Virus record (IMG/VR): IMGVR_UViG_3300042341_001047
Length of the DNA stretch: 64,000 bases
Reading direction: 5' to 3' (one strand)
Source: a virus
The notes below the pieces were generated by a model. The model was not told the DNA's origin, did not search any database, and worked only from the letters and a program-made list of their open reading frames with translations. The translations under genes were made by a program, and so were the position numbers. Below are positions 8,904-34,550 of the stretch, in pieces (the stretch's first letter is position 1; every line of letters starts with the position of its first letter).

Positions 8904-9631
8904 AATTAAAAAAGTATAATGACTTTATTAAAGAATCTTTTGGAACGTCAGCGGAGTATAATAATTTCTTAAAATCAAAATCTATAGACTTAGATTTATT
9001 TGATGATAGTTTATTTGATGTTAAACAATTTGCTAAAGTTAATACTTATAGATATTTAATTGATTCAAAAGGAAATACTATTAATACGGAAGTTGATGAT
9101 AACGAAAAGTATAAAATACTTTACACTTGTCAAATTCAATACAATTTAAATTCCGGTAAAAATGATTTTAATAAAGTTATTGATAATTTAAATACTATTA
9201 AGATTTCTTTAGAAGAAATGATAGATAGAATTGAATCACAAGGATTAAAACTTGACAAAAATGAGTATTGGTCAGATAAAATTCTTATGAATGTGGATAA
9301 AATTACTCACACATTTTCTATATCATTCAAAAGTGATGAGATAGATACAAAAGAGTTGAAAGATAAATTTGATATCTATAACACAACACAAGATGACGAA
9401 TACTTAGAAGGGTTAAAAAAACTTAGAAATATCTATAGAGCAGAAGATATAGATTTCGACAGATATATGGACACCACCGACCAAGATGAGTTTATTTTAA
9501 TAGGAATGTTTATAGGTGATGATTTATATGGAGTAGGCATATATAATTCAGAAACTAAAGAGTTCACTATTGATAGACAAGAAATTGGAGCTTCGGTAGA
9601 TGCTTATAACGAACTAGAAGATAATGAATAA
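8900..9631 (+). CDS. hypothetical protein with capsid-targeting-like leader
   Basis: N-terminus MKLKKYNDFIKES. Confidence 0.6.
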   Translation: MKLKKYNDFIKESFGTSAEYNNFLKSKSIDLDLFDDSLFDVKQFAKVNTYRYLIDSKGNTINTEVDDNEKYKILYTCQIQYNLNSGKNDFNKVIDNLNTIKISLEEMIDRIESQGLKLDKNEYWSDKILMNVDKITHTFSISFKSDEIDTKELKDKFDIYNTTQDDEYLEGLKKLRNIYRAEDIDFDRYMDTTDQDEFILIGMFIGDDLYGVGIYNSETKEFTIDRQEIGASVDAYNELEDNE

Positions 9632-9661
9632 AAAAACCCACTCATTTGAGTGGGTTTTTTT
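9630..9661. terminator. bidirectional intrinsic terminator
   Basis: aaaaaacccactc-attt-gagtgggtttttt between convergent genes; almost identical to 18905..18935. Confidence 0.85.
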
Positions 9662-9663
9662 AA

Positions 9664-16069: not shown

Positions 16070-17398
16070 TTATTGATCTAAAAATTGATCATTTTCAAGA
16101 GTCAAATATGTAGAGTTCAAATTAAGTCGAATCTGTGACTTTAAGAAATCACCATCTCTTTGTTTTAATAACTTGAATCTATACAGATTTTGTCTTTTCA
16201 TTTCTTCAGTTCTTATTATAGCAAAAAATGTGTCTGCTGTTTCAGCAATCGCCTTAGATTCAGGTACACTTTCTAATGTAATATCAGCTGAGTTCCAAGC
16301 GTCCTTAGCGACTTGAACACCAGTTATGACTGGACACTTGTATTTAGCACCAACTGCTCTTAAAGCTTCTGCAAGAGTCTTACCTTTAGTATAAAGGTTA
16401 TCAGCCATTGCTCCTTTATTAGTTGCTACTAATGTGATATAATCCACGATAATTAAATCGATTTTTATATCTTTCTTTTCTTTTAACTTTTGAATGTAAT
16501 TATCAAAATCAGTAACCGTGGCAGTACCAGCCGCCCAGAACTTGGTAAAGATTTTACCAACTTTCTTATCAAAAAGATCCCCACTATCAGCAGTTTTACT
16601 AAGATTAGCGATTTTCTTTTTAATCATTTCGGTATCTTTTGAAAGAACATCATATTCATTGATAGGAATTTTTAATCTCATTGCTCCAATTCTTTTCATA
16701 ACTTTTCTTTCACTCATCTCAAGTGTTATGTAAAGAACATTATGACCCATATCAGCGGCTTTGAAAGCAAAGTTCTGCATCCAAAGAGACTTACCATTGT
16801 TAGTCTCAGCCATAATAACATTAAGAGTTGAAATATCCCAACCACCACCTAACATATGGTCAATTGATTCAAATCCACACTTAACTTTAAATTTAGAAGA
16901 ATCTTGAACGTGGTTTTCAGGGTCATCAAAGTCTGAACCTAAGTCATCATCTTGAATAAAGTTTGTTGATGACATTTCATTGACAATAGATTTAATTCTA
17001 TCAGCCGCTTCTACAGCTTTTTCAAAGTCAGAAATAGAATCAAGATTTCTTGTTTCGTCAATAATATCTACGGTGCCGGTTTTTAACCTATTTCCTAGAA
17101 TCCAAGCGTTAAATTTAGGTTCAATGAAGTTCTTCTCATCATATTCTTTTAAATCTACTTGTAAAATTGATTTTAATATTTCTTTAGTTATAACTCCTTC
17201 TTTATCTTCTAAAGAAACCATATCTAATATTTGTCTAGGAGTAGGAACCTGAGTATCAGCTTTAATCATATACTCTCTAATCACACCATAAACAAATTGA
17301 ATTTCGGAGTTTCTAAAGAAATAAGGTTTAACAATATCAAAGTATTTCTTGTTCTTAAGTATAAAGCTGAAAAATACTTTCTCTAATTGTGGAGTCAT
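16070..17398 (-). CDS. gp41: replicative DnaB-family helicase (T4 gp41-like)
   Basis: Walker A AETNNGKS, YITLEMSE, IIVDYI, ESKAIAETAD, LLKQRDG. Confidence 0.9.
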   Translation of the reverse strand: MTPQLEKVFFSFILKNKKYFDIVKPYFFRNSEIQFVYGVIREYMIKADTQVPTPRQILDMVSLEDKEGVITKEILKSILQVDLKEYDEKNFIEPKFNAWILGNRLKTGTVDIIDETRNLDSISDFEKAVEAADRIKSIVNEMSSTNFIQDDDLGSDFDDPENHVQDSSKFKVKCGFESIDHMLGGGWDISTLNVIMAETNNGKSLWMQNFAFKAADMGHNVLYITLEMSERKVMKRIGAMRLKIPINEYDVLSKDTEMIKKKIANLSKTADSGDLFDKKVGKIFTKFWAAGTATVTDFDNYIQKLKEKKDIKIDLIIVDYITLVATNKGAMADNLYTKGKTLAEALRAVGAKYKCPVITGVQVAKDAWNSADITLESVPESKAIAETADTFFAIIRTEEMKRQNLYRFKLLKQRDGDFLKSQIRLNLNSTYLTLENDQFLDQ

Positions 17399-18904: not shown

Positions 18905-18935
18905 AAAAAACCCACTCAATTGAGTGGGTTTTTTT
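18905..18935. terminator. bidirectional intrinsic terminator
   Basis: aaaaaacccactc-aatt-gagtgggttttttt. Confidence 0.85.
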
Positions 18936-20893: not shown

Positions 20894-21527
20894 AAACTAC
20901 AATGAATATATAAATCAAAATGTTCTTTACATATTTGATTTTGACGACACGCTTGTTAATACACCAAGCTACGAGGAACTCGCTATCCAATTTTTAAAAG
21001 AAGACGTAACAATAAAAGATTTATTAAATCAATCGGTTAATAGAATAGGCGTTACATTAAATGATCTAAAGTGGCAAGACGGAAGAATCTATGTAATGGA
21101 TATCAATAAACAACTAAAAGAATTTGGCAACTGGGTAAGAAAAGGTGACAGAATGTATATGTTGTCTCCAAATTTATTTCACACATCTGATATAAGTTTA
21201 CCAAGTACATTAAAAAGTCTTTCTAAGTTATACAAATCAGTTGATAATAAATGTATAGTAACAGCTAGAGAGGAATCCATAAGAGATAAAATAACAAATA
21301 AATTATTAGAACTTGGACTAGAAATTCCTAAATATGGTTTACATATGGCACCAGTTGGTACTAAAAATGCAGGACATTGGAAAGGTGAGAAGATAGTTGA
21401 AATACTAAAAGAAACAGGATTCCAAAAAGCTATCTTCTATGATGATAATTCTAAATATATTAGAAAAGCAACTAAAGTAGTAAGAGAAAAGATGCCAAAT
21501 ATACAATTTGAACCAGTTAAGGTTTAA
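20880..21527 (+). CDS. HAD-superfamily phosphatase (RNA-repair 'Swiss army knife'-like)
   Basis: FDFDDTL motif I, VTAR motif II, K, FYDDN motif IV. Confidence 0.75.
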   Translation: MTKIKNYNEYINQNVLYIFDFDDTLVNTPSYEELAIQFLKEDVTIKDLLNQSVNRIGVTLNDLKWQDGRIYVMDINKQLKEFGNWVRKGDRMYMLSPNLFHTSDISLPSTLKSLSKLYKSVDNKCIVTAREESIRDKITNKLLELGLEIPKYGLHMAPVGTKNAGHWKGEKIVEILKETGFQKAIFYDDNSKYIRKATKVVREKMPNIQFEPVKV

Positions 21528-23189: not shown

Positions 23190-23570
23190 ATGAAAACTGT
23201 AATACTTAAAGGACAAGAAATTAAAATCGGATCTGAAGTTCGTTTTATTGACGATAGAAATCTTTATTCAGATGTTAAAAATATCATCAAACCTGTTTTA
23301 GGAAATGTATATGTTGTTAGAGGATTCTCTAAAAACGGTGGATTTCTTTTAGAAGGAATTGAAAACCAAATTCACACATTTGCTGATATGAATGGTACAA
23401 TCTTCGATACTTGTGAACCAGGTTTTGGAGTTAACCGATTCGAACCAGCTACACCTCTTAAAAAGAGAAAAATTGTAAGAATTGAAATTCTACCTATGGT
23501 AGAAGAAAGACTTTATGTTCCAACTAAGAAAAAAACTAAAGTCAAAGAAGAAGAATTGGAATTGGCATAA
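23190..23570 (+). CDS. hypothetical (early) protein
   Basis: 126 aa; has its own host-type promoter and terminator. Confidence 0.65.
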   Translation: MKTVILKGQEIKIGSEVRFIDDRNLYSDVKNIIKPVLGNVYVVRGFSKNGGFLLEGIENQIHTFADMNGTIFDTCEPGFGVNRFEPATPLKKRKIVRIEILPMVEERLYVPTKKKTKVKEEELELA

Positions 23571-23600
23571 AAAAAGGGAAGTTTTTACTTCCCTTTTTTT
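23569..23600. terminator. bidirectional intrinsic terminator
   Basis: aaaaaagggaagt-tttt-acttcccttttttt. Confidence 0.85.
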
Positions 23601-23620
23601 ATTTTTATATCTTTTTTAAT

Positions 23621-28570: not shown

Positions 28571-30208
28571 ATGAAACTAAAGAATTATAATGATTTTACA
28601 AATAAATCAAAAAACACAAATGAAGGTAATTCATCTAATTATATGGCTAAATATAGTTTATCTGAATTTAGAAATATGATATCTGATAGTATACTTGAAA
28701 AAGATGAGTTTATAAAAGAAGAAAAAATTAATAGAATTCACGCATCATATGAATTAGAAATGTTATACGAGTCTAAATCTCATTGGGAAAAAACACCAGG
28801 TTCTATTTATCATGTAGATTTTGGTGATCATATTTTCTTAGTTAAGAATTCTGAGGGTTTTATAATAGAGAAAAAAACATTTGAACTTACTAATAGTGGT
28901 GAGTTAGAAAACTCAGAAATTCTTGAAGAGTGGGGTTGGAGAGATCTTGTTCCTGACTTTATTGAAAAAAGAATTGATAAGGTTTCTGAAGGTGGTAAAA
29001 AAGTTTTAGAATGGGTTAAAAAGGCTAAGGCAGCTATTAAAGAGTTTGTTCATCATAATCATAAAGCAATAAGTATAATTTTAAGTATTCTAACTGCTGT
29101 ATTTGGTATCGCTGGTATAGTTGCTCCTGGTTTAAGTGTATTAGGTGGTATTTGTATGATGTTAAATGGTACTTTACACATTTCACACGGATGGAGTGAT
29201 TTCAAAAAAGGAAAAGAAGTACTTGGTAAAGTATCACTTAAAGAATCTGGTAAAGCACTTTCATCTGGAATCATTAGTGGATTACCTGGTTTACTTTCAG
29301 GTAGTTTAATGATGTGTATTGGACTTAATGATGTTTGGCATGGAGGTACTACAGCAATGACTCCAGCCGGAGCAGCTGCTGCGGTTCACTCTGAAGCAAC
29401 TAAAAAAGGAGCTATGGCGACAGTAGAAAAAGTAGTTACTGGGGTAGGAGCTACAATAGAACATACAGTCGAAGCAGGAATTGAATGGTTTGCAGAGAAT
29501 GTTGTTCCAAATGCTGTGAAATTTGCAGGTGAAACTTTATTACCAGAAGCAGCAAAAGGTTTAGCTGCTGGAGCACTTGGTATAGGTTCAATATACTTAC
29601 ATGTTGCACTTAAAAAAATAATCGGATGGATTTATGATGCTATTCTAAAATCAATAGATGTAGTTGTATCAACACTTGATGGTGTTTCAAAAATACCTGG
29701 TAAAATAAGTGATTCGATATCTAAATTTACTGAGAGTGCTAAAGGTTTTGTATCAAAATTAGTTAGTAAAGGATTAAATAAATTAATTAAACCTATAACA
29801 GATTGTATAGCTGGATTCGTAGAAAAGTATATTACTCCAATCCTTAACGGAGTTAAAGGATTTGTTGCTGGTCAACAAATGGCTGTTAAAATTCTACAAG
29901 AAATGGAAAAAAGTAAACCGGAAACTGCACAAAAGATAGAAGGTATGCAAATCCAAGCAGTTCCTAAATCTGATCAAAAAATGTTCCCCAATACAGAACC
30001 TGTTAATATTAGCGATGAAGATAAAAATCAAATAGAAGAAATCGCAGAAGAAGGTGAAGAAAAAAATGGAGGAGGAGAAGGTGATACAAAAAAAGAAGTG
30101 AATAAAGAGGAACAAGCTACACAACCCGAACAACCGGCTAAAGAAAAAGAATCTGTAGCTGAAAGTAAGAAATATCTTATTAAAGAATTTAATAAATTTA
30201 AATATTAA
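28571..30208 (+). CDS. large hydrophobic protein, candidate virion-internal/ejection protein
   Basis: MKLKNYNDF leader; several G/A-rich hydrophobic helices; amphipathic tape-measure-like stretches; C-terminal KYLIKEFNKF. Confidence 0.55.
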   Translation: MKLKNYNDFTNKSKNTNEGNSSNYMAKYSLSEFRNMISDSILEKDEFIKEEKINRIHASYELEMLYESKSHWEKTPGSIYHVDFGDHIFLVKNSEGFIIEKKTFELTNSGELENSEILEEWGWRDLVPDFIEKRIDKVSEGGKKVLEWVKKAKAAIKEFVHHNHKAISIILSILTAVFGIAGIVAPGLSVLGGICMMLNGTLHISHGWSDFKKGKEVLGKVSLKESGKALSSGIISGLPGLLSGSLMMCIGLNDVWHGGTTAMTPAGAAAAVHSEATKKGAMATVEKVVTGVGATIEHTVEAGIEWFAENVVPNAVKFAGETLLPEAAKGLAAGALGIGSIYLHVALKKIIGWIYDAILKSIDVVVSTLDGVSKIPGKISDSISKFTESAKGFVSKLVSKGLNKLIKPITDCIAGFVEKYITPILNGVKGFVAGQQMAVKILQEMEKSKPETAQKIEGMQIQAVPKSDQKMFPNTEPVNISDEDKNQIEEIAEEGEEKNGGGEGDTKKEVNKEEQATQPEQPAKEKESVAESKKYLIKEFNKFKY

Positions 30209-30209
30209 T

Positions 30210-30782
30210 ATGAAACACTTAAAAACATTTGAATCGTTTTCAATCAATGAAACAATGGATATGATGACACTACCAGTTGATCCTATTCCAGGATCAGTAG
30301 ATGTCTATAGTGAAGTATTCAAATCAATTGGTTATAAAATTAATGATATAGTTAATCCATTAAAAAGAGTAGCACTTCCAGATGTTGTTAAAATTAAAGG
30401 TTTCATGATTAAAACATTTGGAACTACCTCTCCAGAATTGTCAAAAGAAAATGTTGAAAAACTAAATAAAGTTCTTGGATTAGATTATATTAATGAAAGT
30501 TCTTTTCAAGAAAATGAAAACTTAGCTATTAAATTGTGTGGTAGAATTAAACAATTATTAGGTGTTAATATTTATGCCAGTGCTGGTATTCCTTTGGCTA
30601 CGGTTTTAGGATTAATATCTGGTTCAGTATTTATAGGATTTGTTACATTTTTAGCCGGATGGGCATTACTTTGGATTTTTTCAAAAATTATGCAAATCTT
30701 TGGATACGGAGATATGGACACTAATATTAGTGGTATTGGAACTTATGATCCAGATAATGACATCAGAAGAAGAGAGAACTAA
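30210..30782 (+). CDS. hypothetical membrane protein, N-terminus paralogous to 24682..25530
   Basis: MKHLKTFESFSINETMDMMTLPVDPIPG; TM helices. Confidence 0.6.
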   Translation: MKHLKTFESFSINETMDMMTLPVDPIPGSVDVYSEVFKSIGYKINDIVNPLKRVALPDVVKIKGFMIKTFGTTSPELSKENVEKLNKVLGLDYINESSFQENENLAIKLCGRIKQLLGVNIYASAGIPLATVLGLISGSVFIGFVTFLAGWALLWIFSKIMQIFGYGDMDTNISGIGTYDPDNDIRRREN

Positions 30783-30796
30783 TAGAAAAGGTAATT

Positions 30797-31153
30797 TTAA
30801 TCATTACAAGTTTTCTTTACCCATTTAACAAGTATATCTCCGTGACAAGATTTACCACCACCTCCTAAATTTTTACACCAACACCCAAGAACTTTATCTT
30901 TTAATTCATGTAAGTCATTCATTAATTCTTCATTAGAAAGTAAATACTCTTCATAAGCATCTACGATTTTTTTTCTCGTAGTTCCCTCTGGAAAAGTATC
31001 ACGCAATTCTTTAGGGTAAGACCACTTATTGTATTTACCATTTGGTAACCGACCAATATAAATGTCAAAAGGTTCTTTCTTAAAATGAACTACTCTTACT
31101 TTATGGTCATATTTAGGCTTACCTTTAAAACTATCAAAAAAATCATCACTCAT
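30797..31153 (-). CDS. DUF4326-family protein
   Basis: VVH..K...DIYIGR...KW; ELKDKVLGCWCK...CHGDIL. Confidence 0.8.
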   Translation of the reverse strand: MSDDFFDSFKGKPKYDHKVRVVHFKKEPFDIYIGRLPNGKYNKWSYPKELRDTFPEGTTRKKIVDAYEEYLLSNEELMNDLHELKDKVLGCWCKNLGGGGKSCHGDILVKWVKKTCND

Positions 31154-31229
31154 ATTGGTAGATTTACTTTACTCAATAATTGATTTGAAACGTGTGTATA
31201 TATCTCAGTTATAAATAATAAAACTAAAA

Positions 31230-31382
31230 TTATGAATTGTTTAATTCGTTCAGTCTTATTTTCGCTGTTTCATAAGTATTCCACCTTTCATAAAATGATT
31301 CAAATAATCCAAACCATCTTACATATATCATGTGATAAACTTCACCACACATCAATTCTTGTTTAATAAAGTATTTTTTCAT
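31230..31382 (-). CDS. small cassette-encoded protein (50 aa, MKKYFIKQ...)
   Basis: The ATG at 31382 lies just inside one arm and the stop inside the other arm of the 31208-31414 module; the longer ORF-track start runs through the repeat. Confidence 0.5.
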   Translation of the reverse strand: MKKYFIKQELMCGEVYHMIYVRWFGLFESFYERWNTYETAKIRLNELNNS

Positions 31383-31620
31383 ATTGTATAATTTTAGTTT
31401 TACATATTTATAACAAAGTGTAAAAAACATTAAAACGATTTTTTACACTCAACCGTTGTTTTGGAAGAAGAGTGATTTTTATATCTTAACTTTTCTTCAA
31501 ATATTTTAAGAATTTTCATATAGAATCATATATAAAATAAGTGATTTAGTTTAATTATAGATATATAATAGTTATGTTTAATTGTTCGTTCCTCACAACT
31601 ACACTTCGTTAAACATAACA

Positions 31621-31830
31621 TCAGATAAACGAAATAAAATTAAAAATCAGCGATATTGCTAATACAATCACTATTCCAACTATCCATTTTCGTGCAAGAA
31701 AAAATCCTTGTACAAAACCATTTGAATATCCACTCGTATATGAATGTTTATCAATGTTTAGTTTTTTGTAATCAACCTTATCGTGTTTATTTAATTTTTG
31801 TAAAAGTATTTTTTTAAGTATTCGTTCCAT
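31621..31830 (-). CDS. small cassette-encoded membrane protein
   Basis: 69 aa with a C-terminal TM helix; enclosed by inverted arms 31613-31633 / 31848-31871. Confidence 0.55.
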   Translation of the reverse strand: MERILKKILLQKLNKHDKVDYKKLNIDKHSYTSGYSNGFVQGFFLARKWIVGIVIVLAISLIFNFISFI

Positions 31831-32011
31831 ATTTTTTTAATTTTACATTCGTTTATCTGTAACCGTTATGTATAATAAAAACTTAATTATGAGTTTCTAT
31901 TTTACAAAAATATTTATCCAAGTGAATAATTAAGTTTTTACTAATACATAACAAAGTGTAAAAAACATTAAAACGATTTTTTACACTCAATCGTTAGTGA
32001 TAATTAAAAAA

Positions 32012-32209
32012 TTATTTACTTTTTATAATATTTATTATTTTATCCTTATTCTTCTTCATATATACATCTATCGTTTTAATCTCCCAATTGATATATAAAT
32101 CCTCGATTATTTGAATAAGATTAGTAATTTTTTCACCATCACTAACATCAGATATATTCAAGTTTTCTTGATGTTCATTGAACTTTTGTATGTGTTTATT
32201 ATTTTCCAT
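32012..32209 (-). CDS. small protein spanning a cassette junction
   Basis: Leader MENNKHIQKFNEHQENLNISDV comes from one module and the rest from the next; TAATATATA upstream. Confidence 0.55.
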   Translation of the reverse strand: MENNKHIQKFNEHQENLNISDVSDGEKITNLIQIIEDLYINWEIKTIDVYMKKNKDKIINIIKSK

Positions 32210-32290
32210 CTTCGTATGTTATTTTAGTGTATATATTAAAAGAAAACCTAAATATATCTGAGTATCGTTATATTCAATTACTTTAAAATA

Positions 32291-32761
32291 CTACAGGTTG
32301 AATCTTATGCATTGTTCGGTTATGTATTTAGAGTGTTCTAATTGTAAGTGAGTAGCCAAACCAATAGTTAAGTGTAATCCAAAGTAAGGATCTGGAGTTA
32401 AACCCATAGCAGTTCTAATGTTTCTAGCATCATCACAATAAACTTTCAACCACCAGTGACCTTTATCGTTAGATCTAATTAAAGTTGGATCATATTGTAA
32501 AGTGATTTCTTTTCCGTGGAATATTTCTCTAGCTTGTGCGTAGATTTCATCATCACATCTATCATTGATAATAGTAACGTGAGTTCCTCTTAAAGGTTTG
32601 TTCAACTTCAAGTTGAATCTTTTTTCTAAGAACCAAGCGTAGTAAGCAAAAGTATCATCATCGAACTTCACCATAGCAGTTTTCTTCCAACTAGACTGAG
32701 CATTGTGCTTCTTAGTCACGTTAATTGGGTCAAACTCTATAATTCCTTTCAATTCAAACAT
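32291..32761 (-). CDS. 2H phosphoesterase family protein
   Basis: Two HxT motifs (GTHVTII, GLHLTIG) about 68 aa apart in 156 aa; TATCTTTG host-type promoter box at 32766-32773. Confidence 0.7.
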   Translation of the reverse strand: MFELKGIIEFDPINVTKKHNAQSSWKKTAMVKFDDDTFAYYAWFLEKRFNLKLNKPLRGTHVTIINDRCDDEIYAQAREIFHGKEITLQYDPTLIRSNDKGHWWLKVYCDDARNIRTAMGLTPDPYFGLHLTIGLATHLQLEHSKYITEQCIRFNL

Positions 32762-32813
32762 AGAACAAAGATACTTAGAAATATTAATATATACAAAAAA
32801 TATAAAATATTAT

Positions 32814-33248
32814 ATGGTATTATCAACATTAATTATAATGAATTTCATTTGGATAGTTTATTCACTAACAGAAGGAATGAGAGAAGGTTTCTACTGGCAC
32901 TATGAGAATAGTTGTAAAAGAGTATGTGACTTTAATGTGAATCCAATATTTAATCTACAAAGAGCTCTAATTTTATTAATAACATCAATAGTTATGGTAG
33001 GTATAATCGGATGGTACTCCCTATTAAGTTCAATATGTATGATACTAATTTTTAGCTTCTTTCACAACGGAACCTACTATCATACTAGAAATAAATTAAG
33101 TAATGGAGATTTATATCCTAAAGGATGGTGTGATGAATCTAGAACATTTCCACCATTTACACCACTAATAAAATATAATAAAAGAACTATAGCAATGGTA
33201 ATAGGTGTTTTATCACAAGTATTCATCTATCTATTTCTACTAAATTAA
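32814..33248 (+). CDS. hypothetical membrane protein
   Basis: Several TM helices; likely start MVLSTL at 32814, since the ORF-track start overlaps the divergent gene. Confidence 0.55.
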   Translation: MVLSTLIIMNFIWIVYSLTEGMREGFYWHYENSCKRVCDFNVNPIFNLQRALILLITSIVMVGIIGWYSLLSSICMILIFSFFHNGTYYHTRNKLSNGDLYPKGWCDESRTFPPFTPLIKYNKRTIAMVIGVLSQVFIYLFLLN

Positions 33249-33259
33249 AAATAAATATT

Positions 33260-33448
33260 ATGAAAAAAGAACCTGAAATGATTAAAAATCAATCAATGTC
33301 AAAAGAAGAAATCAACCTATTAAGAGAAAAATTTGTTAATGAATACTCTAAAAAGAAAGGTTGGAATTCAAAAGAATTATCAACACAACAAATGATGGAG
33401 ATAGTTTCTCACAAACAATACAAATCACCTGGATTAATCTTAGGTTAA
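33260..33448 (+). CDS. small hypothetical protein
   Basis: 62-aa ORF. Confidence 0.55.
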   Translation: MKKEPEMIKNQSMSKEEINLLREKFVNEYSKKKGWNSKELSTQQMMEIVSHKQYKSPGLILG

Positions 33449-33464
33449 GATAAAAATATCCTGA

Positions 33465-34550
33465 TTACATCAGGATATTTTTTTGCTTTTTAATTCCATT
33501 TGGATTATCACATAAATCACTTGTATAAACAGTACCAATCTCTGGTAACATTTCCATTATATCATATCTGTTTCCAACAAACTCTTGTTTACCTCTATGA
33601 TTTTCAACATATAAAGCGTGACCATTCCAATTAATACTTTTCATTTCTGTATATCCTTGTTCAAAAATCCATCTATAAAGTAAAGAAGTTTCTTCTTCTA
33701 TTTTCTTTTTAGAGATATACATTTTTTTAGTTTTATCACCGAATTTAAAGTATGAGAAGTAATCAGCAGAATAAACTGAATTATCATCACTCTCACCGGT
33801 GTCAATATCATCATAATTATACTGATTTCTTTTTACAGGTAATGTTTCCCAATCAATATTACAAACTGACTTACAAAGTTTAGATAAAAATTCAATATCT
33901 TGATGTTCACTAGTTGTATGTTCTTTGTAATAACCTACAGATATGTTAGTACACTCAGGTACCAAGTCCATAAATTTAGCAGAATCTGTAAGAATACCTG
34001 TATCATCTGGTTCAAAACTTAAATTCTCACCAGCCACATTTAATCGAGTGGCCAATTCTTTTGCAAATTCATCAGAACAACATCTACCATACCATTGGTG
34101 TGTAATAACAGAAGTAGTTCCTCTTCTATCAAAAGAAACAACCTTATTAATTGTTTTTGAAAATTCATTATTTTGCCAATCATTAGAGACTTTACCAGAT
34201 CCTATACAACCAACTTCTTCACCTAAGAAGAAATAGTAAAGTCCTGGAATTTTCTTTTCTATCATATACATCACAACAACCATACCTGCTTTATCATCAG
34301 CTCCTAAAATGGTTTTACCATTAGTTCTAATAAATTTAGTATCTTGAACGTGTGTTACTTTTTGTTGTGTTGAACAAGCCGTGTCTAAGTGACAGGTAAA
34401 CATTGTAGTTGGATTTTCACCAACAACATAATAAAAGTTACCAAACTTATCTTGTTTTGTTCCTTGTGGTAAATATGATTTTAAAAATCCCTCAGTTCCG
34501 TTCGGATATGTGTAACTTGTAAGTTGTAAAAACTTCTTCCTAATTCTCAT
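33465..34550 (-). CDS. M28/M20-like zinc peptidase
   Basis: CHLDT, LGADDKAG, GEEVG, SFDRR, TDSA, NISVGYYKEH. Confidence 0.85.
   Translation of the reverse strand: MRIRKKFLQLTSYTYPNGTEGFLKSYLPQGTKQDKFGNFYYVVGENPTTMFTCHLDTACSTQQKVTHVQDTKFIRTNGKTILGADDKAGMVVVMYMIEKKIPGLYYFFLGEEVGCIGSGKVSNDWQNNEFSKTINKVVSFDRRGTTSVITHQWYGRCCSDEFAKELATRLNVAGENLSFEPDDTGILTDSAKFMDLVPECTNISVGYYKEHTTSEHQDIEFLSKLCKSVCNIDWETLPVKRNQYNYDDIDTGESDDNSVYSADYFSYFKFGDKTKKMYISKKKIEEETSLLYRWIFEQGYTEMKSINWNGHALYVENHRGKQEFVGNRYDIMEMLPEIGTVYTSDLCDNPNGIKKQKNILM

Follow-up and report, generated by a model that had tools for sequence, protein, structure and literature searches.

A 1.1-kb stretch of the genome of a large uncultured phage (positions 31,154 to 32,290 of the window, i.e., the 64,000 nucleotides of IMG/VR record IMGVR_UViG_3300042341_001047 that were analysed as one stretch) consists of four small mobile gene cassettes, each made up of a hairpin and a segment closed by its own inverted repeat. 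We consider it likely that this locus is a recombinase-dead mobile cassette array belonging to a phage-borne, integron-like gene-capture system. The evidence for this reading comes from the anatomy of the cassettes, the covariation of their closing helices, the gain and loss of whole units at a fixed core in relatives, the link to a recombinase gene, and the wreck of such a gene in the window itself, all of which could be established from the data.

The window is part of a record of 175,660 bp (27–30% G+C) whose distant DNA relatives are uncultured huge phages. Window and record differ at 18 bases clustered in three short stretches (differences at 17075, 21198-21251, 30019-30136, and 30830-30979; one cluster lies within the DUF4326 gene), none of them inside the locus described here. 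All genes at the locus are on the minus strand; their order is a 2H phosphoesterase-like gene (32291-32761, 156 aa), the orphan ORFs O3 (32012-32209, 65 aa, ATG at 32209), O2 (31621-31830, 69 aa, one membrane segment), and O1 (31230-31382, 50 aa), and a DUF4326 gene (30797-31153, 118 aa). The two outer genes are the kept upstream and downstream flanks, respectively. The 2H gene product has two H-x-T motifs and a weak match to 2H phosphoesterases (PF22547, E 0.0017; phrog_12204), and could perhaps be a cyclic-nucleotide or RNA-end phosphodiesterase. O1 and O3 had no match in Pfam or PHROGs, and the only match of O2, to the C-terminal portion of SLATT_5, was below threshold (E 0.0018).

The same 2H gene is encoded on 15 viral contigs, across which the interval between the 2H and DUF4326 genes ranges from 361 bp to 2.6 kb with unrelated contents. 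Among these 2H-gene relatives, the modules of the window recur only in L005, in another arrangement and with other interiors; no modules of this kind were found in L004 or L006-L018, and L004, whose flanks are 94% identical, has a compact operon in their place. A HAD-like gene that is intact in L004 (6287-6703) is broken off in L005 (5811-5846) after about 10 codons, and the break falls right at CATAAC, the first TAAC core, where the array starts. An earlier, sequence-only reading of the window had proposed integron-like shuffling, an idea that would have been refuted by a locus invariant among relatives or by breakpoints away from the GTT/AAC cores; instead, the locus is hypervariable and its breakpoints fall at AAC cores.

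That reading had described a chain of nine interlocking inverted-repeat modules joined at GTTA/TAAC cores, and all nine are present, with their arms and their GTTA/TAAC ends, as are the 50-aa and 69-aa ORFs (31230-31382 and 31621-31830, both minus strand) that it placed in the chain. The second module (31411-31457) and its copy (31949-31996) share an identical run of about 43 nt, of which 38 nt were matched exactly, and this short hairpin has two copies in the genome, both at the locus. When folded as single-stranded DNA, the modules reached z-scores of -2.6 to -4.4. The 1.1 kb contains four of the 30 highest-ranking ungapped inverted repeats of the entire 175,660-bp record, and 6 of the 14 hairpins in the genome that are bounded by TAAC..GTTA or GTTA..TAAC sit there, while the genome-wide count of such hairpins equals that of shuffled sequences. 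The inverted-repeat chain thus exceeds chance and, within the 175-kb record, is confined to this locus. A search of positions 29000-34000 against Rfam gave no family match. GTTAT/ATAAC and TATAAATA were also considered as genome-wide promoters and were rejected, because they are about as frequent at the locus as expected and are not distributed across the genome. The ordinary terminators of this genome look unlike the cassette hairpins: they are short hairpins in which a G+C core separates an A-run from a T-run, and they can be read from either strand (e.g., 9629-9662, 18905-18934, and 23567-23602 of the window).

Two kinds of module alternate in the chain, and the sequence-only reading had taken each of them to be a cassette in its own right. 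We found instead that they are the two halves of one cassette, a hairpin followed by a closed body, with four such units read along the minus strand. The array opens at its 5′ edge with an orphan closing-helix 3′ arm (32267-32284) that ends in a TAAC core, 10 nt past the 2H stop codon; its partner arm could not be identified. The 2H gene itself was rejected as a cassette, as there is no partner arm at its start and it is kept in all relatives. Cassette 1 (31993-32266, 274 nt) carries O3. Its hairpin has stems at 32240-32261 and 32148-32169 and a loop containing the ATG (32209) and 14 codons of O3, and its closing-helix arms, at 32133-32146 and 31993-32006, are those of the module at 31993-32146. 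The hairpin of cassette 1 corresponds to the module first described at 32143-32270, which is a widely kept leader with a start codon and the first ~22 codons. Cassette 2 (31865-31992, 128 nt) has no ORF and joins a short hairpin (stems 31955-31965 and 31977-31987) to a closed body of 88 nt (31865-31952). Cassette 3 (31571-31864, 294 nt) holds the entire O2 gene in the loop of its hairpin (stems 31848-31859 and 31622-31633), ahead of a closed body of 49 nt (31571-31619). Cassette 4 (31208-31454, 247 nt) carries O1 and lies inside a recombinase gene, with its short hairpin formed by the stems 31417-31427 and 31439-31449 and its body closed by the arms 31389-31414 and 31208-31233.

The same anatomy recurs in relatives. 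Exact copies of the 19-nt left arm of the leader (32143-32270) occur in 40 stretches of viral contigs, and by alignment the leader is a unit of ~130 nt in which TAAC and a G are followed by 5 nt of spacer and a stem of 19 bp. The loop comprises untranslated sequence and then an ATG with about 14 codons; six residues are encoded by the returning arm of the stem, after which come 2 nt and GTTA. Two wobble pairs in this stem are paired on the coding strand only. A blastn search of the leader module against GenBank phages gave no match. The leaders of about 40 loci (e.g., 32170-32209 of the window, minus strand) keep an N-terminal peptide of ~22 residues ahead of unrelated proteins. Separately, L005 contains a rearranged cassette (L005:7676-7840) in which a leader, its interior inverted relative to L005:6743-6875, is fused to a duplicate of the 2H end (the last ~35 nt of the gene) and to a cassette 3′ arm, a structure not accounted for by the simple model.

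For 35 of 38 leaders, the 14 nt that follow the hairpin have a pairing partner (13-14 of 14 positions) in a stretch that ends in TAAC and lies 0-25 nt past the stop of the variable gene, and when arms were swapped between loci such pairing arose in only 2 of 190 trials. The TAA of the TAAC core doubles as the stop codon in about eleven cases. A general scan then gave 194 distinct cassettes of 65-1587 nt (median 258 nt), a set chosen for full pairing, in which all four bases are used at positions 5-9 of the closing helix and position 11 is a G·T wobble in 188. Since this set was pre-selected for pairing, the weight rests on the unselected leader-anchored test and on the shuffle control of the scan (607 vs 169). 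As judged from these comparisons across loci, the closing helix of ~14 bp covaries and keeps one G·T wobble. It is the pairing in the leaders and in the 194 cassettes that identifies one kind of module as the closing helices of bodies and the other as the hairpins between them. The asymmetry first seen beside the cores of the window, 2 nt on one side and 5-6 nt on the other, also holds in relatives: 163 of 194 cassettes have G as the base after TAAC, and in 186 of 194 the dinucleotide before GTTA is TT, AT, CT, or GT.

The window itself bears a trace of mobility in the recombinase gene that cassette 4 interrupts. The sequence-only reading had set the module at 31455-31574 aside as degenerate and had stated that no recombinase is in the window; this module is instead an attI-like site with the 5′ end of a tyrosine recombinase gene, and remnants of that gene are present at 31455-31519 and 31153-31207. 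The wreck was mapped by DNA alignment to the intact recombinase gene of L150 and reads, on the minus strand, as the attI-like site and recombinase upstream region (31520-31570, TAAC followed by T and an AT-rich box), a 5′ part in which codons 1-17 (31469-31519) are joined to codons ~241-245 (31455-31469), and a 3′ part with the last ~18 codons and the catalytic-tyrosine motif (31153-31207), whose stop codon overlaps the ATG of the DUF4326 gene. The same T and AT-rich box after TAAC precedes the intact recombinase genes of L050, L137, L150, L168, and L173. Over the attI-like site and codons 1-17 (31583-31469) the DNA is 84% identical to L150, relative to which an internal deletion of ~674 nt fuses codon 17 to codons ~241-245. 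When the record's own genome was searched with the recombinase of L076, codons 1-21 were placed at 31519-31457 and the last 21 at 31215-31153.

The segment 31454-31208, i.e., the short hairpin plus the closed O1 body, fits precisely between ...CAAC and the recombinase codon that follows; its first base is G and its last four are TAAC. The 5′ part of the pseudogene ends in the AAC that is the insertion point, and no recombinase base was lost there. Cassette 4 is thus a precise insertion at a secondary AAC site, and this precision defines the mobile unit as G, spacer, hairpin, and closed body. The window array is a fossil of four cassettes, one of them within the ruins of a recombinase gene. A PF00589 search of the 175-kb record gave no match and no intact recombinase, and neither a serine recombinase nor an HUH transposase was found in the record. 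With its recombinase gene destroyed, the array can move only with an enzyme from a co-infecting relative. A second array-bearing contig, that of L163 (G003, C1:8765-9013), also has only a fragment of the recombinase (residues 2-84, open frame of 99 aa), so decay of the gene may be recurrent.

The sequence-only reading had advised a search for a tyrosine recombinase, and such a gene does follow the arrays in relatives, with only remnants in the record itself. The commonest ORF family around the arrays is a protein of ~265-266 aa, present at 12 of 46 array loci (a count to be read with the fact that these loci are short pieces of contigs) and, in all 12, downstream of the last cassette on the same strand; the gene lies elsewhere on the contig in three of five further array contigs. 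Members have a tyrosine-recombinase catalytic domain (PF00589, E 1e-33 to 1e-39) and a SAM-like N-terminal domain, and intact relatives combine the latter with the catalytic R..HxxR..Y residues, as Xer-like tyrosine recombinases do. Where G and a hairpin would follow TAAC in a cassette, the stretch ahead of the recombinase gene has T and an AT-rich box, or else another fixed sequence, and we call this site attI-like. The family comprises more than 120 clusters at ≥75% identity, nearly all of 265 aa, on contigs of up to 445 kb, and carries the JGI label XerD. Against the integron integrase profile TIGR02249, intact relatives score 150-160 bits, split over two stretches (cut-off 265); their best profile is a XerA-type one, likewise under its cut-off. 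Aligned to VchIntIA (2a3v), 28 query residues stand opposite 76 IntI residues, leaving the phage protein ~48 residues short at the IntI-specific insert, whereas the alignment to archaeal XerA (4a8e) is continuous from end to end. The closest cultured relatives, at 37% identity, are integrases of Polaribacter and Cellulophaga phages.

Comparison of near-identical genomes revealed units coming and going. L141 and L144 share kilobases of 100% identical sequence and are distinguished by one unit of 386 nt in mid-array and by 762 nt (two units) adjoining the recombinase gene, both differences being bounded at TAAC|G. Among cultured phages, the ten Freya isolates (Polaribacter phages of one species, 43,978 to 48,920 bp) vary in how much small-gene DNA is inserted immediately upstream of the integrase, from 0 to 4.9 kb. 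The site ahead of the integrase is empty in Freya_1 (...CAAC|ACCCC...), and at that position Freya_10 has 4.9 kb of cassettes with twelve small genes; Freya_9 and Freya_10 are otherwise identical and are told apart by a single 307-nt unit inserted at the integrase-proximal site (Freya_1, _8, _9, and _10 are L176-L181; MT732463, MT732470-72). The description of these phages mentions only an integrase and a possible temperate lifestyle and does not comment on the cassette difference (PMC8776804). On the evidence of these aligned genomes, whole units are demonstrably gained and lost precisely at TAAC|G. A first model, in which crossover occurs at GTTA after the hairpin so that the leader is donated to the next body, was dropped because the indels and the in-gene insertion start with G and a hairpin and end with TAAC. 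The crossover is therefore placed at TAAC|G on the coding (minus) strand rather than at GTT, where the sequence-only reading had put it.

The sites also fold in a strand-dependent manner. The coding strand is more stable than its complement at 158 of 182 sites (p about 4e-25). Rebuilding the circular junction of the short window cassettes, with the 3′ arm, hairpin, and 5′ arm joined as in a circle, gives one continuous two-part hairpin of about -23 kcal/mol, compared to about -8 in the array context. In these folding models, the rebuilt junction would fit a site that acts as a folded strand, its outer helix resembling R and its inner hairpin L, an inference and not an observation. That recombination proceeds via a folded single strand is likewise inferred, from the indirect evidence of strand-biased folding, the kept G·T wobble, and stems without sequence conservation. 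An extra RNA role of the hairpins is not excluded, as the wobbles and the strand bias would also fit an mRNA helix.

This last point leads to the alternative that survives best, though we consider it improbable: that these are RNA-level regulatory cassettes like the PeSLs of T4-type phages, i.e., terminators, leaders, processing sites, or mRNA helices, shuffled by homologous recombination without a dedicated recombinase. Strand-specific structures with G·U-compatible wobbles on the mRNA strand, a leader hairpin that encloses a start codon and precedes about 40 different genes, and a hyperplastic region rich in small orphan genes (as in PMC2839356 and PMC4122927) would all be expected of it. 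It does not account for indels between 100% identical genomes that end at TAAC|G despite non-homologous neighboring hairpins, for a cassette within a recombinase coding sequence at a bare AAC without flanking homology, or for the tyrosine recombinase gene that regularly adjoins the arrays; moreover, it is not obvious what a cassette without an ORF would do as RNA, and the motifs do not serve as promoters or terminators across the genome. We regard it as very unlikely that the units are miniature elements with subterminal hairpins, moved by a single-strand HUH (IS200/IS605-type) transposase that inserts beside a fixed tetranucleotide, even though the hairpins do adjoin a fixed TAAC and insertion is oriented, with no target duplication beyond the shared AAC: the record, in which the sequence-only reading had suggested looking for an HUH enzyme, has no Y1 transposase (no PF01797 match), the recurrent neighbor is a tyrosine recombinase, and the units pile up in one array beside the recombinase gene, at a single locus in 175 kb, instead of being scattered. 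A shufflon or inverton, in which an invertase flips segments between inverted repeats and so switches or recombines gene starts, could draw on the inverted leader interior at L005:7676-7800 (vs L005:6743-6875) and on the weak matches of tyrosine-type invertase profiles to the recombinase, but is scarcely credible when every repeat pair has its own sequence, near-identical genomes differ by insertion or deletion of units and not by inversion, and all 190-odd cassettes have one orientation relative to the recombinase gene.

In the integron-like system that we propose, a cassette begins on the coding strand with the G after a TAAC core, followed by a 3-5-nt spacer and a hairpin of variable sequence, whose loop in some cassettes holds a start codon or a whole small gene; 2 nt later comes the body, GTTA...TAAC, with its first and last ~14 nt complementary. 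In a circular cassette, the two arms would flank the hairpin and yield a long two-part hairpin, like the R and L boxes of attC. The Xer-like recombinase (265 aa, downstream and co-directional) would exchange strands at AAC, and cassettes would preferably insert at the attI-like site ahead of the recombinase's own gene. Catalysis by this ~265-aa enzyme, a folded single-stranded site on the coding strand, and circle intermediates are all inferred, and no recombination has been directly observed. With less assurance than for the locus itself, we lean towards the broader view that large Bacteroidota phages and cultured Polaribacter phages own a gene-capture machine, built independently of IntI from a minimal Xer-like recombinase, in which folded two-part sites head each gene and can supply its start and first 22 codons, and for which the cassette-spanning 14-bp helix with its fixed G·T wobble is a landmark; such a machine would trade counter-defence and accessory genes between co-infecting phages and can insert into itself, destroying its own recombinase gene. 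If true, this would be a second, probably independent invention of folded-hairpin cassette recombination, by a different and much smaller phage recombinase, would offer a mechanism by which large phages could build up hyperplastic regions of small orphan genes, and would flag hundreds of mobile phage genes as host-takeover or anti-defence candidates. With cultured phages (Freya_1 to Freya_10) that already vary by single cassettes, the system lends itself to direct testing, and a 265-aa enzyme acting on structured sites could be of interest as a tool.

Integrons are the textbook example of a bacterial system that captures and shuffles genes, and the phage arrays resemble them in many respects: small, mostly orphan gene cassettes arrayed in one orientation; sites whose structure rather than sequence is conserved, in which AAC and GTT cores surround an asymmetric internal loop and a variable stem-loop; one strand that folds better, with crossover at AAC on that strand; whole-unit gain and loss at the core; a preferred site beside a tyrosine recombinase gene; and secondary insertion at AAC. 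They differ in that the phage enzyme is a 265-aa Xer/XerA-like protein without the IntI-specific insert, encoded downstream of and co-directional with the array, whereas the integron integrase is upstream and divergent. Furthermore, the phage hairpin accompanies a gene at its 5′ end and may include the start of that gene, the genes face the other way relative to the sites, the outer helix of 14 bp has a fixed G·T wobble and spans the whole body in the array, and the host of the system is a phage genome. Of the features that define an integron, structure-conserved hairpin sites with AAC and GTT cores are present, as is discrete unit gain and loss at the core beside the integrase (L141/L144; Freya_1, _9, and _10; the in-gene insertion); an IntI-clade integrase with its specific domain is lacking in intact relatives, and an intact integrase is lacking in the window. 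Since the recombinase has no IntI-specific insert, we regard the system as an analogue of integrons and not a member. In the same way, the window array resembles CALINs, orphan arrays without a functional integrase, and with four cassettes and a dead recombinase gene it would meet their definition (at least two cassette sites in a row, no functional integrase), by analogy only, as the sites were not scored with an attC model.

A Xer-type recombinase and short sites bracketing small gene modules are also found in the pdif modules of Acinetobacter plasmids and in Xer-dependent integrating elements, in which neighboring modules likewise share sites in alternating orientation. Their sites are sequence-conserved 28-bp duplexes used by the host XerC/XerD, in contrast to the structure-defined hairpin sites and phage-encoded enzyme found here. 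We found no published description of phage cassette arrays served by a Xer-like recombinase (subscription journals were outside the search); the nearest published items are PeSL cassettes and the attC clusters that IntegronFinder detects in phages. PeSLs of T4-type phages are similar in that repeated stem-loops flank small non-essential genes in hyperplastic regions and the modules are shuffled between related phages, with mini-circles proposed; they are sequence-conserved sigma-70 promoter and terminator motifs that recombine by homology (PMC2839356, PMC4122927). The present locus does not fit that definition of a conserved promoter and terminator moved by homology: its motifs are absent from the rest of the genome, its stems covary, its breakpoints coincide with a 4-nt core flanked by hairpins that lack homology to each other, and it comes with a recombinase gene of its own. 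Nor does it fit the IS200/IS605 family, which is defined by a Y1 HUH transposase, as the record has no PF01797 match.

Phage attC clusters were reported with IntegronFinder by Qi et al. 2023 (PMC9892861), who found virulent phages, a Polaribacter phage among them, to contain attC-like sites and small cassettes, with DNA methyltransferases as part of the cargo; the phage sites were handled as parts of bacterial integrons and tested with the bacterial IntI1, and no phage-encoded Xer-like recombinase, closing helix, or leader-carrying site was described there. DNA methyltransferases are also cargo of the present cassettes: the 73 longest cassette ORFs include three N6/N4 DNA methyltransferases and one C5 DNA methyltransferase, along with five other Pfam matches (four domains of unknown function and a dual-specificity phosphatase), and the cassette genes are otherwise mostly orphans.
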